DNA of 64,000 nucleotides from Rozella allomycis CSF55 (lineage: Eukaryota): the NCBI GenBank assembly GCA_000442015.1, contig KE561158.1, positions 1 through 64,000 of the forward strand. The letters run 5' to 3'. The notes below the pieces were generated by a model. That model had not been told where the DNA came from. It ran no database searches and worked only from the letters and a program-made list of their open reading frames with translations. The stretch's first letter is position 1. Each line of letters opens with the position of its first letter. Position numbers and translations under genes: made by a program. Shown piece after piece: positions 17,913-62,522 of the stretch.

Positions 17913-19125
17913 TCAATTTCTAGCTTCCAATTGTATGCTTTCTTGATTTGAAAATGATTTCGACATTGATTTATTTTCACTGACTGATATTTTGCGATGA
18001 TCATTCATTGTATCTTTAACCTCTAGATATGTTTTATCTCCTGTTAAAGATATTTTCTTTGACGTTTCAAATTCATTCAATGCAGCTTTGCCTTTCTGCG
18101 ACCTATGAGATTTAAAACTAATAAGTTCTTATTACGAAATTGCTGATTCTGTTCTCCCTGAACTGTCACTTTGTTTGGACTTATTTAGCTTTTCATGGAT
18201 TCTTTTAGTCTCGGTTTTTCTAGCGTATATAGGTTTCTGCTGACGCCAAAATTCAGTTCTACTCTCAAGATACTGCAAACCCTCGTTAATTAAATCACTT
18301 AAAGAATCGTTTGGAGCAAAATCAGGATCATCAGCTAACTTTTGTAGATATTCTTTATCAGCATATAATTCGCCTAGAAGTTGTTTTTCATTGGCCTCTC
18401 TTTTTGCTTGAAGAGCAGTGTCTACAACTTTTAACTGAGCTACACTCTTTTTGACATCAATCACTGTAGCTCTAGCCATTGACTTCTTATCATTAGTTTT
18501 AAGCGCTGATGGAGTGATAAATGGCGTAGACATAGTATAGCTATCAGATCTTTGGCTATGAATGGGTTTTAGCTGATATTCCTTATCTTTTCAAAACGAC
18601 TCTATCTCATTACTGCCAATAGAATTATCTATAGCTTCTTTGGCCTTTTGTATTCCTAATCTGAATTCATCTAATTCAGGTCGTAAATTGTGACCCCGAT
18701 GGTAGTAAACAAGCGCCTTTTCAAATTCACCCATGGAATAAAGCGCTTCAGCTTTGTACAGTTTCCCCTTCAAAATTCTATGGCAATTAATTTACTTTGA
18801 AAAAGTCCTTGTCTTCTTTAAGTGACGCTTCTGCGTCAGAAAGCGCTGCTTTAGGATCTCCGAGTTGTAAGTGGCATTTTGCTCGTGACACTAGGCAGTT
18901 CTTATCTGTTGGTCTATGTAATAATGCCATTAAATAATATAATATACTTCATACTTTGGTGAAAGCCTCCACTGCTTTTCTTGGATCACCTTGCTTTGCT
19001 AAAAGGTCCCCTTCCGCCTGGAGTGATTGGAATGAAGAAACTGGCCCATCATTTCCTGATCCGTCGTCGCCTATATCATGGTTCTCGTTATTAACGGGGG
19101 GTGTATTTGAAATAACCTTCGCCAT
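17913..19125 (-). CDS. TTC25: Outer dynein arm docking TPR protein TTC25/ODAD4 (N-terminal-type short form)
   Basis: KAEALYSMGEFEKALVYYHRGHNLRPELDEFRLGIQKAKEAI; LLGELYADKEYL; RTEFWRQQKPIYAR. Confidence 0.9.
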
Positions 19126-19225
19126 GTAATGGTTACTAGGTAAGCTTCAACTAAATAAAAATAGGCCACAAGTTGATAAATTATGTCCAAGAATCTTAAA
19201 AAGAGTAAAATATATTTAATTATAA

Positions 19226-20123
19226 TTAATTCTTGATAATTTTTTGTTCTCCACTCCATTCCTCACATGGCGCCAATCGCATGTAGTTTTCAACATTCCC
19301 CGGTTCAACACAAAACATATTTTTGTACTAATAAAATATATAAACTTAATTTACGCTTTCATCTCCAAAGTCCGCCATTGTCTTTGACTTTTGAATCCAA
19401 GGATTCCACACGACAACATCAGAGAACCCATTCAATTGAAGGGTAATATCAAAATCACCAGTTTCGAGATGTAAAGATTCCGGAATTGAATAGTAGCGAC
19501 AATCAACTTCTTTACCAAACGTTATTGCCTCATTGTTTTCCACTCCGTTTTGTCTAGTCAGGTCGTCACAAAATGAAGCTCCCTTTAAACCTTTCACTCG
19601 AACATTTGCAATGTCAGAGGTATAAAAATATGTATGAAATAAAGTTTGGAATTCAAATACGCTGTCTCCGGTATTCTGAACTCTTATTCTGGTTGTTAAT
19701 TTGTCCTTAAAAAGTACTACATGATACGTAAGTTTAAAGGAGTGTGGCCAAAGTTTTCTGGTAGTTTCGTTATCCGTCAATTCGAAGGATGTCTCAATAT
19801 AATCTTTACATTCATTCACATTTTTCGACCATGTCCAATCAATGTTCCTGGCAAAGCCGTGTTGAGTAGGAATTTTTCCTTTGCCAAATTGAGCTAAATT
19901 ATAAAATATGAATATTCTTACGAAATACCAATGGAATACCGCCCCTAATTGGCTTTGATTTGTCAAAAAGAGCTTTATCAGATAAGAATAGTATCGTTCT
20001 ATTTTGCAATGTACAATGAGTGATTGTCGCTCCAAATATGTGGATGTTACAATAGCTCTGGCCAATGCTTATTTTAACCGAGTCTATGTTTCCATTTTCA
20101 AGCTTTTTGATTTCAAAGGGCAT
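19226..20123 (-). CDS. Glucose-6-phosphate 1-epimerase (aldose epimerase family; 2 introns)
   Basis: PIRGGIPLVFPQFG, QHGFARN, LFHTYF, DVVVWNPW, FCVEPG. Confidence 0.9.
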
Positions 20124-27744: not shown

Positions 27745-28193
27745 AATGCGAGTGAAGCGAGTGCAAACCCTAACTATGGACAATGTGGTGGGAACACGGG
27801 GCCGTATGTGCTAACTAGCGCGCTAACCCCGATACATGTTGTCATGTAACTCTATTAATGTGAGCGAATCGTCGACAACCGCTAGAAACAAAATGCTTTT
27901 CGAAAAGCGCAAATAAAGAACTGCGAGCGAAGCGAGTTCAACCGCTTATTAATTAAAAATCTCAATTTTCCGCCACAAGGAATCAAGGATTAAAACTCCA
28001 AGAGTGGTTTGTTGTTAACCACACTCACAGACCACTCGATTAATGGAGTCTGGGTCTTCTGGCAATTTGGGAAAAGCTGTTCTTTCAGATAGTCATAACC
28101 TATTTGAATTTTGGATCTGGGTCAGTGTAAGGAATATCATTATCTAAATCGATGTATAATGCGAAAGAACTAGAAGCGAGTACAACCGCTAGT
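27745..28193 (+). repeat. Four degenerate copies of AATGCGAGCGAAGCGAGTACAACCGCTAG (Helitron 3'-end-like)
   Basis: Copies at 27748, 27860, 27923 and 28161. Confidence 0.65.
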
Positions 28194-47167: not shown

Positions 47168-49117
47168 TTAATCAACTTCTTCAATGGTTGGACCAGCATT
47201 GTCACCTGATGGGGCAGCACCGCCTGGAGCAGCACCTGGGAAGCCACCTGGAAATCCACCTGGAGCAGCACCAGCTTGTTGGTAGAGTTTAGACATGATT
47301 GGATTGGCAACAGATTCAAGTTCCTTGTGCTTAGCATCGAATTCTTCCTTCTTTGCGTCTAAATGTTCATCTAACCATTTGAGAGTTTCATCAATCTTGC
47401 TTTCAAGGGTTGACTTGTCATCAGCAGAGAACTTGTCTTTAAGGTTGTCTTCATTCATAGAGTTGCGGAGAGAGTAAGCATAACCTTCCAATTGATTCTT
47501 TGATTGAATACGAGCAGCAGCTTGTTCATCTTCATTCTTGAATTTCTCAGCATCAGAAACCATTCTTTCAATATCTTCCTTTGAGAGACGACCTTTATCG
47601 TTGGTGATGGTGATCTTGTTTGACTTTCCAGTGCTCTTGTCAACAGCGGAAACGTTGAGAATACCGTTAGCATCAACATCAAAAGAAACTTCAATTTGAG
47701 GAACACCACGTGGAGCAGGTGGGATACCAGAAAGTTCAAACTTGCCAAGGAGATTGTTATCTTTGGTTTGAGCTCTTTCACCTTCAAAGACTTGGATCAA
47801 GACACCTGGTTGGTTGTCAGCATAAGTGGAGAAGGTTTCACTCTTCTTGCATGGAACAGTGGTGTTTCTCTTGATCAAAGGAGTCATAATACCTCCAGCA
47901 GTTTCAATACCTAAAGAAAGTGGGGCAACATCCAACAACAACAAATCTTGAGTCTTCTCTGAAGTGACACCAGAAAGGATAGCAGCTTGGACAGCAGCAC
48001 CATAAGCAACAGCTTCATCAGGATTGATAGACTTGCATGGTTCTTTTCCATTAAAGTAATCAGAAACTAATTTTTGAACCTTTGGAATTCTTGTAGATCC
48101 TCCAACCAAAACAATTTCATCAACTTGGCTCTTGTCCATCTTGGCATCTCTCAAAACCTTTTCAACTGGATCGATAGTGTTTCTAAACAAATCTCCACAC
48201 AATTCTTCAAACTTGGCTCTTGTAATAGAAGTATAGAAATCAACTCCCTCAAACAATGAATCAATTTCAATAGTAGTTTGAGTTGCTGATGACAAAGTTC
48301 TCTTTGCTCTTTCACAAGCAGTTCTCAATCTTCTCAATGAACGTGGGTTTCCAGACAAATCCTTCTTGTGCTTTCTCTTAAACTCTTGGCAAAAGTGGTT
48401 AACAAGACGGTTGTCAAAATCTTCTCCTCCCAAGTGAGTATCTCCAGCAGTAGCCTTAACCTCAAAGATTCCTTCTTCAATCAACAACAATGAAACATCA
48501 AAAGTACCACCACCCAAATCAAAGATAAGAATGTGCTTCTCTCCAGTTGTCTTCTTGTCCAATCCATAAGCGATAGCAGCAGCTGTTGGTTCGTTGATAA
48601 TACGCAAAACGTTCAATCCAGCAATAACTCCAGCATCCTTGGTAGCTTGACGTTGAGAATCATTGAAATAAGCTGGAACAGTAACAACAGCATCCTTCAC
48701 AGTGGTTCCCAAATAAGCTTCAGCAGTTTCCTTCATCTTCAACAAAACCATAGATGAGATTTCTTCAGGGGTAAATTGCTTAGCTTCTCCCTTGTATTGA
48801 ACTTCAATGATTGGCTTTCCGGCCTTGTCAACAATCTTGAATGGCCAGTGCTTCATATCGGATTGAACTTCAGCATCATTGAAACGACGTCCGATAAGTC
48901 TCTTGGCATCGAAAACAGTGTTCAAAGGGTTCATAGCGACTTGGTTCTTGGCTGCATCTCCAATAAGACGTTCACTGTCGTTGAAACCAACATAGGATGG
49001 AGTAGTACGGTTTCCTTGGTCGTTGGCGATAATTTCAACACGGTCATTTTGCCACACTCCAACACAAGAGTATGTAGTTCCTAAATCAATTCCGACTGCG
49101 TTAGTTGATGAAGTCAT
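47168..49117 (-). CDS. SSA1: Cytosolic Hsp70 (intronless)
   Basis: [21 protein letters not shown]-terminal GPTIEEVD; strong codon bias. Confidence 0.98.
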
Positions 49118-49169
49118 GAAAAATTTTCAAACAAGCCACGGTACTCTTTCCTATTTATCTCTTTCGGCT

Positions 49170-49407: not shown

Positions 49408-50576
49408 TCAATCAAGCCTACGTGGTCTTGAAAACGGGGCAAAATTATGTTCGGGCGTTTCAAAATTTATGCAAGCTTCACTCACTGGATATGAAGGTGG
49501 TAATGTATCATCGAATTGACCATCATGATCAAAATTCAAATAGGATGGTGAGTCATAGGTTTCAAATAAATATCTCTGATCTTCATGTATTTGTAGAGGA
49601 GCGGATGCCATTTTTTCATCTAGATAATAATTGTATTCAGGAAGGCAGTAATGACCTTGATGACCTTGAGATGCGTGTGCCAACTTATGATCTTCATTCG
49701 CAAAAATTATATTTTCATAATTCACGTCTTGAGTGAATCGAAAATCTCTTAAATAAGGATTGGGGTACGCAACAGTTTCTTCACATTGAGTTTCAAAATA
49801 TTCAGGCGATTGCTCCATATACACAGATACAGTTTCATTCAAAATATTCTCACAAAATTTATCNAATATTCTCACAAAAATTATCAATTTCATGGTCAAA
49901 GTAATTTTGAACACGTTTTTGATTTTTCACTTTGTCCAAAGAAGCAAGTTCAGTAGAGCTGGAGGCTCTTGTCAAGTCTTCTACAGCTTTGAGTTCAGTG
50001 CCAATTTGAGTGTCTTTACATACTTCGGACACTACTTGCTGATCCGGTTTTGGAATGGTTGAATCACCTTTCAAAAAGTTCTTTTCATCAAAGGCATCAT
50101 TATTATATTAGCTTACATTCTTACTGGATTGTTGGATATTGGGCTGAAAAGTAGGAATTACCAAAGAGGAAGACTTCTTTCCCTTGTTGAAAATTCCATG
50201 GGAGTTTTTTAATGAGACTGTCAGTCTGCCTTTGGACGAACATTTTAGTTTCTACTTGGAATATAATACACATTTTTACTTCAGATTGGATTTTGGTCAA
50301 GGTGAACTTTGTTGGGCGCGTCTCTTTAAAGGATTCCTTATTATTAATTAATATCGAGTTTTTGAAAGTGTCTTCTTTGGCAATACGTTCCGATGAATTC
50401 ATAATGTGGTCTGGGGTGCTTTGTATCACCTTTAAGTCTATCGACTCCTTCCAATCATCCACTAAAGTCTGGCAATCACTTATATATGAATCCATAATTA
50501 ACTTCTTCATTTCATTCATTTTGCAAATTGGTTTTGTTAAAACCCTTGAAAACTGGTTCTGAAATTTGTAAATCAA
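49408..50576 (-). CDS. Hypothetical protein (spliced; exon structure uncertain)
   Basis: Consecutive open frames separated by short GT..AG segments; no recognised domain. Confidence 0.5.
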
Positions 50577-59177: not shown

Positions 59178-59284
59178 TTGAGAATTTAACGAAATTCTAA
59201 ACCTAAACATCTTCATTCAAGACTTTAAATTAAAGTCTTGAAGTCTTTAATGTATTGAAAATCAAAATGCGAGAAATGTGATTT

Positions 59285-61167: not shown

Positions 61168-61858
61168 TTATTTATTATGAATGAACAAATGGTCCTTTAA
61201 AGCAACAAACGTTGAAAACCGATGTTCACAAGAATTGCATTTTAGTTCACTCTTTAGTAGACTCTTTGCTTTCGTTTCATCAACCTCTTAAAATTGGAAG
61301 AGTCTTTTACTTTGATTCTACCAAACTCTAATAGTTGCTGAATTATTTCATCAATTTTCATAAAGAAACTAGTATTAAAAGAATTCCAATGCTTTTTATT
61401 CTTCAAGCAATCAGAAATGTAATCTTTAGAAATTACATGAAGATGAAGTGGTCATAAATCAAAATAAAATCTTATTTTTACTTCATTGAAGGAATCATGT
61501 GGAATCCCATATTAAATTCGGTGCTTTTGGCATGTTGGGGAATGTCGCGCGCTGCAACCTCCTTGAAATGGCGCAATAAAGGGATATGACTTTCATTGAG
61601 GTCTAAGATACTCAACAGGTGCGGATTTCTTGGAAGAATTAGATAATGATATTTAGACTGAAAGAATTATCGCATCATTTGATTACTTTTGGGTACATGT
61701 CCTTAATCATAACAACTTGACTATCACTGTAAATAATTTCATCTTGATATTTTGAAGGATTATCTAAGTAAACCCTTAGTCCTTCTGTCCAGTGACTTCT
61801 CTTATTTTTCTGAACATTTGGAAGTGACACCCTCTTTGCGATTGCCAAAATATCTACC
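61168..61858 (-). CDS. APTX: Aprataxin (HIT plus C2H2-type finger); 5' end not resolved; absent from the ORF track
   Basis: Spliced IKDMYPKSKYHYLILP...GFHMIPSMKPLHLHVISKD...LKNKKHWNSFNTSFF...LKCNSC...LKDHL. Confidence 0.88.
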
Positions 61859-62522
61859 TATAACTGAAACCAATCTTGATCCCGAGCTTCAATTTGGGAT
61901 GTAGGAACAGTGACTTTTATAATCTATTTTGAGAATTTGCAGTGTATTACGTTTAGACGTGCATTTCCTTGAAATATTGGTTCCCTCGACACCTGTATAT
62001 TCTCTGTTGGACGATCTTCAGTGATATTAATTTCTTGTACTCGATTTCATAAATAATTATGACCTTACAATATTTCCCACGCCATGTCCTTTCGACAACT
62101 ACCACACTGATGATTGACTATTTCAGATTACGTTACTTTGAATTTGAGATCAATGATTTGAGATTATTTAATGATCCAGACAATTTTTTCGATTTATGTG
62201 ATGNGCACTGATGATTGACTATTTCAGATTAGGTTACTTTGAATTTGAGATGAATTTTTTGAGATTATTTAATGATCCAGACAATTTTTTCGATTTATGT
62301 GATGATATAATCTTCATGATTTCCTCTGGGCAGTCGTAAACCAACAAATTCAGCGATGATCCTTGTGACGCCTATAATCACTTATAAGGATATAAAACCT
62401 TAGACAGCAGTTCAAAAGATTCCATAGCTGATAACATTCTATTCTTGTAGCCTAAAAGAGGCAAGGCAACGTCAAAAATACTCATGGGAAATTCCAAAAA
62501 CATTTTTTATGAAAAATGAAAT

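Follow-up and report, generated by a model that had tools for sequence, protein, structure and literature searches.

A candidate GT–TG mini-intron in the aprataxin gene of Rozella allomycis and its bearing on the AG acceptor rule

TG acceptors and very short introns in described systems

Few rules of gene structure are firmer than the AG at the 3' end of a U2-type intron. Of the non-AG acceptors, TG alone is documented as working in U2 introns in the passages of the literature used here, and it is described there as the 'best' of them (PMC2374985). Passages of the same study and of a later one report human U2-type TG 3' splice sites in GNAS, in TSPYL2 and in 36 genes (Szafranski et al. 2007, PMC2374985; Parada et al. 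2014, PMC4176328). Here we analyse a 29-nucleotide (nt) segment with GT..TG ends that interrupts an aprataxin gene of Rozella allomycis CSF55. It lies on the minus strand of contig KE561158.1 (assembly GCA_000442015.1), of which positions 1 to 64,000, a stretch of 64,000 nt, form the window of this study. We put the probability at about 0.6 that this segment (61481-61453) is a real U2-type mini-intron in which TG is the only usable acceptor, and that such TG introns account for roughly 2% of introns. A second GT..TG segment of 27 nt was found in an ODAD4/TTC25-like gene of the same window.

Both segments share with the human TG introns, as far as the cited passages describe these, an ordinary GT donor, TG in the place of AG and a purine at position +1. 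They differ in that the human introns are long and carry TG beside AG, whereas the introns considered here measure 27-29 nt and TG would be their only productive site. Downstream of the TG, the next AG follows after 29 nt in aprataxin and after 27 nt in the ODAD4-like gene, and its use leads to a broken or shortened product. Within the fungal lineage, the relevant part of a study of Ganoderma lingzhi lists 22 GT-TG introns against 89,855 GT-AG introns, or 0.024% (PMC11590231). These are likewise U2 introns with GT..TG ends, and they come from transcript-based annotation (PMC11590231). The share in Rozella would be about 2%, roughly 80 times higher than the share given in that part of the study, and would be found in ultra-short introns.

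For intron length, the closest described relatives are the Microsporidia, the sister lineage, in which introns under about 30 nt occur in the reduced genome of the parasite Encephalitozoon cuniculi (passages of PMC6349667 and PMC13644364). Rozella belongs to the same clade and shares introns under about 30 nt; but these passages describe for Microsporidia a handful of introns that are spliced inefficiently (under 20-25%), whereas the window holds about two introns per kb. The same passages of PMC6349667 and PMC13644364 contain no report of TG acceptors in Microsporidia. The part of a 2026 paper used here names ciliates, Microsporidia and Dicyemida as the lineages whose introns fall below about 30 nt, and Rozella is absent from that list (PMC13644364). 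A search of titles and abstracts of the Rozella literature, which left the 2013 genome paper and supplements outside its scope, found nothing on intron length or TG acceptors in this organism, and the searched passages of PMC8476143, PMC6349667, PMC6699826 and PMC5701793 made no statement on either.

The 29-nt segment of the aprataxin gene

On the minus strand, positions 61481-61453 read GTAAAAATAAGATTTTATTTTGATTTATG (29 nt), with T at 61454 and G at 61453. The upstream exon ends in ...ATG AA and the downstream exon begins with A CCA CTT CAT CTT CAT. A sequence-only reading of this DNA had held that the segment must be removed to build the aprataxin HIT motif, that translation would otherwise stop at once, and that no AG could take the place of TG. 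All three claims were borne out. Without splicing, the frame reads AAG TAA, an immediate stop, and stops are present within the segment in all three frames. In addition, the codon immediately 5' of CCA in the exon frame is a TGA (61454-61452), so acceptors upstream of this codon are unusable for aprataxin. The AG at 11 nt gives a product ...PSMKFYFDL followed by a stop, and with the AG at 58 nt the HIT motif is lost and the product is out of frame, with 12 stops. The sequence is as had been described, and the frame is restored only by 29-nt removal; each 29-nt removal tested gave a stop-free aprataxin protein. A 32-nt removal leaves one residue fewer and scored lower against all 6 relatives compared.

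At its 5' end the segment looks like an ordinary U2-type intron of this region. It begins with GT in the local donor consensus, and the 5' score of its donor GTAAAA ranks at the 77th percentile among 47 canonical introns of the window. Its length of 29 nt is shared by 16 of the 127 modelled AG introns described below. The departure from the U2 type is confined to the 3' end, where the segment ends in TG and no AG leaves the frame open. It does not have the layout of a TG-AG tandem acceptor, in which TG is an alternative to a functional AG at a distance of up to 28 nt: in the downstream direction the first AG comes after 29 nt and yields a frameshifted product, and the upstream AG stands 11 nt from the donor. 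Introns of the U12 type carry the extended 5' consensus RTATCCTT together with a matching branch site; the aprataxin intron begins with GTAAAAAT and does not fit this class.

Comparison with relatives revealed how much sequence has to be supplied at the junction. In alignments with solved human aprataxin chains, exon B reaches chain residue 96 (..PSM) and exon C starts from residue 99 (E 2e-16), so exactly two residues belong between the two exons, as the GT..TG junction supplies. Two residues were also found at this point in 10 of 10 relatives from the protein collection, and the PSMxxxHLH spacing of aprataxins named in the sequence-only reading is thereby confirmed. The junction position is occupied by Arg or Lys in the relatives, several of which read ..PSM[R/K]PLHLH.., and relative P0010 is identical over ..IPSMKPLHLH... 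The final model aligns with P0010 without gaps from the HIT motif through the end of the zinc finger. The product combines a HIT fold bearing the histidine motif with a C-terminal zinc finger, as expected of aprataxin (Pfam DcpS_C and zf-C2HE). The first His of the human H-x-H-x-H motif is a Pro here, as it is in P0001-P0003, P0006, P0010 and P0013.

Variation within the species was assessed by comparing the window with contigs of four DNA runs (X1, X2, X5 and X6); these contigs contain no joints, and the letter differences listed for them near the junction extend as far as 61452. None of the runs listed as containing the stretch is recorded as RNA, and the one RNA run in the list had next to none of its words, a result that carries no information about expression. 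Two or more haplotypes of the aprataxin locus are present among these contigs. Over the junction codon and exon C, 7 of 9 haplotype differences are synonymous, against an expected proportion of 0.177 (P 1.4e-4), which argues for purifying selection on a frame that can be reached only by 29-nt removal. One of these differences affects the first exon base (61452) and changes AAA to AAG, so that Lys is kept under the proposed junction.

Apart from its TG acceptor, the predicted aprataxin gene is intact. Removal of intron 3 (61310-61285), which was found by dynamic programming, joins ..GRIK to VDETKAKSLLKSELKC.. and gives a linker equal in length to that of the relatives; this intron superseded a 35-nt GTTGAT..AAAGAG intron (61284-61250) that had been considered for the 3' part of the gene. 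Intron 3 is polymorphic in length: the window and runs X1/X2 have the 26-nt form, and X5/X6 have a 27-nt form with an extra base behind 61287. Reading this extra base as a frameshift lesion, and hence as a sign of gene decay, was ruled out, as the base falls inside intron 3. At the 5' end (61832-62140, minus strand), the long exon A lacks an ATG, and short GT..AG segments further upstream offer several candidate models for the start codon and the first one to three mini-introns. Among public proteins of 30-2000 residues, none was found with this organism's aprataxin exon C. A metagenome scan recovered 34 aprataxin loci; none was close (43-80% identity, partial matches), and their introns lie at other places.

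A second GT..TG segment and the introns of the window

Three independent TG cases had been claimed from the sequence alone. Two of them, aprataxin and the ODAD4-like gene, are backed by homology, and the third is without such support. The assignment of the second gene follows from its N-terminal TPR region, which is collinear with ODAD4 and aligns with protein P0181 over 136 ungapped columns. Removal of the 27-nt segment gives an ungapped alignment with P0181 and P0182 across the junction (..FTK followed by ALLHRPTDKNCLV.., against ..FTTALLLQPTEKNCLV.. in these proteins), and the end of exon 1 coincides with the point before the second helix in designed consensus TPR proteins. The sole in-frame AG option is a 54-nt removal, by which nine conserved residues are lost. 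The 54-nt AG model scored below the 27-nt TG model in all four homologues (394 versus 436, 396 versus 429, 311 versus 336 and 246 versus 274). The donor of this intron scores at the 53rd percentile of the canonical introns. Both TG introns carry A at -3, and the base at +1 is a purine in each.

P0147, the only near-identical public protein model found for the ODAD4-like gene (516 residues; 97% identical over the part compared; 17916-20068, minus strand), fuses an aldose-1-epimerase gene with it. Nine conserved residues are missing from this model, an exon of 51 codons is left out entirely, and introns of 54 nt and about 215 nt are used in it. P0147 probably comes from a gene finder that is unable to model introns under 30 nt, which would make it uninformative on the acceptor base of that haplotype, and it suggests that the public annotation of the species is unable to model its mini-introns.

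Gene models for the window were built by dynamic programming with GTA donors and AG acceptors; the 42 dominant open reading frame (ORF) chains obtained hold 127 introns and a total of 16,155 codons. The window uses the standard genetic code, and in-frame stops between long ORFs are accounted for by in-frame mini-introns; codon-usage scoring was too weak to tell real from shadow ORFs. A length of 24-33 nt was found for 104 of the 127 modelled AG introns, the most frequent lengths being 26 nt (27 introns), 27 nt (26), 29 nt (16), 28 nt (14) and 30 nt (8). The mode is thus 26-27 nt. The idea that TG is accepted at the modal intron length stands to the extent that both TG introns fall within 24-33 nt; the aprataxin intron, at 29 nt, is off the mode itself.

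The same length range emerged from all ORF-joining GTA...NN candidates. AG ends made up 50 of 362 candidates of 24-33 nt (0.138), against 27 of 512 at 34-45 nt, 40 of 752 at 46-60 nt and 66 of 1101 at 61-79 nt (0.053-0.060), the genome background being 0.054. AG is thus enriched only at 24-33 nt, and the 54- and 58-nt AG alternatives of the two TG introns fall where real introns are undetectable. Donors in the window are strong (GTA, mostly GTAA). In the canonical set of 49 junction candidates, which were chosen as GTA-starting, the base at -3 was T in 31, A in 11, C in 5 and G in 2, and positions further upstream held almost no information (mean 0.27 bit over -12..-3).

Two TG introns against 104 AG introns of 24-33 nt give the estimated TG share of about 2%. 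Three further candidates were set aside. A GTAAG...ATG candidate at 28127-28154 (plus strand, 28 nt) has no homology support and was left uncounted. Another at 50124-50098 (minus strand, 27 nt) was also left uncounted, as it lacks homology and a canonical intron of 36 nt can replace it without a change of frame; a TG candidate at 38234-38202 (minus strand) does not fall in a supported gene. A stop would arise from 7,647 of the single-base changes possible in the 16,155 modelled codons, against 104-127 possible changes of AG to TG; if two random changes each broke a gene, the chance of both being AG>TG is about 2e-4. Among the modelled conserved genes of the window, none was seen to be broken by nonsense except at N joins. 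The coordinates of the features are collected in Table 1, together with those of an HSP70 gene whose complete identity to a Rozella allomycis CSF55 protein places the window in that species or in a nearly identical strain.

Table 1. Positions of the aprataxin and ODAD4-like features and of an intact HSP70 gene in the window
Feature	Position	Strand	Description
Aprataxin exon A	61687..61831	minus	..KRSHWTEGL..VVMIKDMYPK; weak Pfam DcpS_C match; 5' boundary provisional
Aprataxin intron 1	61658..61686	minus	canonical GTAATC..TTCAG, 29 nt, phase 0
Aprataxin exon B	61482..61657	minus	HIT domain, ends ..GFHMIPSM plus AA of the split Lys; Pfam DcpS_C 1.7e-12; aprataxin chain residues 39-96
Candidate GT..TG mini-intron	61453..61481	minus	29 nt; 5' GTAAAA, 3' ..TTATG; phase 2 (AA/A = Lys)
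Aprataxin exon C	61311..61452	minus	opens with base 3 of the split Lys codon and continues PLHLHVIS..; carries the catalytic HIT histidines; matches aprataxin chains 99-148, E 2e-16
Aprataxin intron 3	61285..61310	minus	canonical GTAAAA..AAGAG, 26 nt, phase 0
Aprataxin exon D	61171..61284	minus	..SLLKSELKC.., C2HE/C2H2 zinc finger; Pfam zf-C2HE 2e-6; ungapped versus P0010; stop TAA 61170-61168
Second candidate GT..TG mini-intron	18928..18954	minus	27 nt, GTATGA..TTTAATG (acceptor T at 18929), phase 0, in-frame TGA; ODAD4/TTC25-like TPR gene
ODAD4-like exon 1	18955..19125	minus	ATG at 19125; ends ..AVEAFTK
ODAD4-like exon 2	18796..18927	minus	begins ALLHRPTDKNCLV..; ODAD4 chains 43-81, E 2.5e-8; ungapped versus P0181/P0182
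HSP70 gene	47171..49126	minus	intact, single exon; 100% identical to an NCBI Rozella allomycis CSF55 protein; next best are chytrid and other early fungal HSP70s

Several irregularities of the assembly were observed. At the N at 2790, an Hsp110-like gene duplicates positions 331-370 of the Pfam HSP70 profile; at the N at 62204, a stretch of roughly 65 nt is repeated; and at the N at 49864, the short stretch GAGAATATT occurs on both sides. These near-duplicates at single Ns look like unmerged contig overlaps, and local gene models are unreliable there. The window also contains a 22-nt stretch (59223-59244) that is missing from the contigs of all four runs; its surroundings are palindromic, and it is flanked by two genes of the minus strand.

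Competing explanations and what a TG acceptor would mean

Not all of the evidence agrees with a spliced GT-TG intron. GT..TG shows no bulk excess over other dinucleotides among the ORF-joining candidates of the 64 kb, and the case rests on two loci; when each of the 15 non-AG dinucleotides was admitted as acceptor in a dynamic-programming control, 0-9 picks were obtained for each, and 2 for TG. According to the passages of the human study used here, TG works as one of two choices, the other being an AG at most 28 nt away, and never as the sole acceptor (PMC2374985). The quality of the assembly and the exact position of the junction also tell against this reading and have to be weighed with the explanations that draw on them.

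The most direct challenge concerns the T at -2 itself, which might be private to the assembly, either as a consensus error or as a rare defective allele, the functional allele ending in ..TTAAG as an ordinary GT-AG intron of 29 nt. The contigs covering 61340-61496 do differ from the window, at one unplaced site in the reference-like and two in the alternative sequence, and the geometry of the 31-mer bubble suggests that one of these differences is at 61466. At 61380 and 61398, which are synonymous third positions of aprataxin, the window has A (plus strand) where every contig of the four runs has G, so the window's haplotype is unrepresented in these runs at this spot. The window-specific 22-nt segment at 59223 and the duplicated overlaps around the Ns at 2790, 49864 and 62204 show that flaws and private sequence occur in this assembly. 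Moreover, with A at -3 in both TG introns, a single A>T is enough to turn AAG, the ending of 11 of the 49 canonical introns, into ATG. Yet this explanation needs the same A>T at -2 to have occurred twice, in two unrelated conserved genes, for which the chance calculated above (about 2e-4) applies, while no nonsense lesions were seen elsewhere in the modelled codons. With word depths in the hundreds for the contigs, a miscalled consensus base is unlikely, provided that the window derives from similar data. We therefore regard a private base as an unlikely source of the TG, though one to be taken seriously.

If splicing in this organism strictly needed AG, either the next AG (58 nt) would be used or the intron would be retained, the aprataxin message would be dead, and the gene or allele would be non-functional in this strain. 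Precedents are human AG>TG mutations, which in the passages cited activate neighbouring AGs and not TG (PMC2374985), and the reduced genomes of parasites in this clade. A dead gene sits poorly, however, with the intact remainder of aprataxin, with purifying selection on exon C in the frame opened by 29-nt removal, with the same architecture in the ODAD4-like gene, and with an AG enrichment that ends at 33 nt; we consider it quite improbable. A different kind of doubt attaches to the boundaries. Sliding the 29-nt window by -1 (AG..AT, with Arg) or +1 (TA..GA, with Lys) also yields an acceptable aprataxin: both junctions are stop-free and have nearly equal alignment scores, the relatives have Arg or Lys at this position, and the same shifts are equally allowed in the ODAD4-like gene. 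The messages from the three junctions are nearly the same, that from the +1 shift being identical, and homology alone cannot separate GT..TG from the shifted pairs. The GT..TG junction is preferred because only with it does the donor resemble all other local donors. The GTA-starting canonical set consists mostly of real introns, judging from the AG excess at 24-33 nt, and the donor scores of both TG introns are typical of it, whereas AG..AT or TA..GA would break the rule at both ends and GT..TG at one. Shifted boundaries are thus very improbable.

Taken together, real use of a TG 3' splice site in this organism is favoured, and partly supported, by the two loci. For the proposal that the spliceosome accepts TG 3' ends speak the two homology-backed mini-introns (29 and 27 nt) with ordinary donors, the otherwise intact gene and the purifying selection; set against these are the missing bulk excess of GT..TG and the only rough agreement with the modal length, and the proposal is partly sustained. 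Under the GT-TG reading, we infer that the RNA is cut at 61482/61452. Donors are strong, intron length is tight, and the acceptor region carries no polypyrimidine tract or other signal beyond (T/A)AG. These features suggest that distance, measured from the donor and the branch site, is what chiefly sets the position of the 3' cut. The last G would be essential, while A at -2 would be preferred and U tolerated there by the catalytic step; such tolerance would let about 2% of introns persist with TG. As the nearest downstream AGs (29 and 27 nt off) give defective products, TG, if it is used, is the sole productive site, and this, if so, is the new element relative to the described systems.

It is a tentative extension, to which we give slightly less than even odds, that AG is dispensable for intron recognition in Rozella-type fungi. 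With intron length kept to about 26-29 nt, a length ruler and a terminal G would pick the 3' site, and TG would be used constitutively, as the only acceptor of roughly 1-2% of introns. If true, hundreds of TG introns may exist genome-wide, and this would be the first lineage with a non-AG acceptor as a regular part of its U2 splice code. Gene models that are absent or garbled in the public annotation would be accounted for as well. In practice, genes will be missed or deformed by gene finders that demand AG and a length above about 30 nt. In addition, such a lineage would offer a natural system for studying how the second step of splicing reads position -2 and how length alone may define a 3' splice site.
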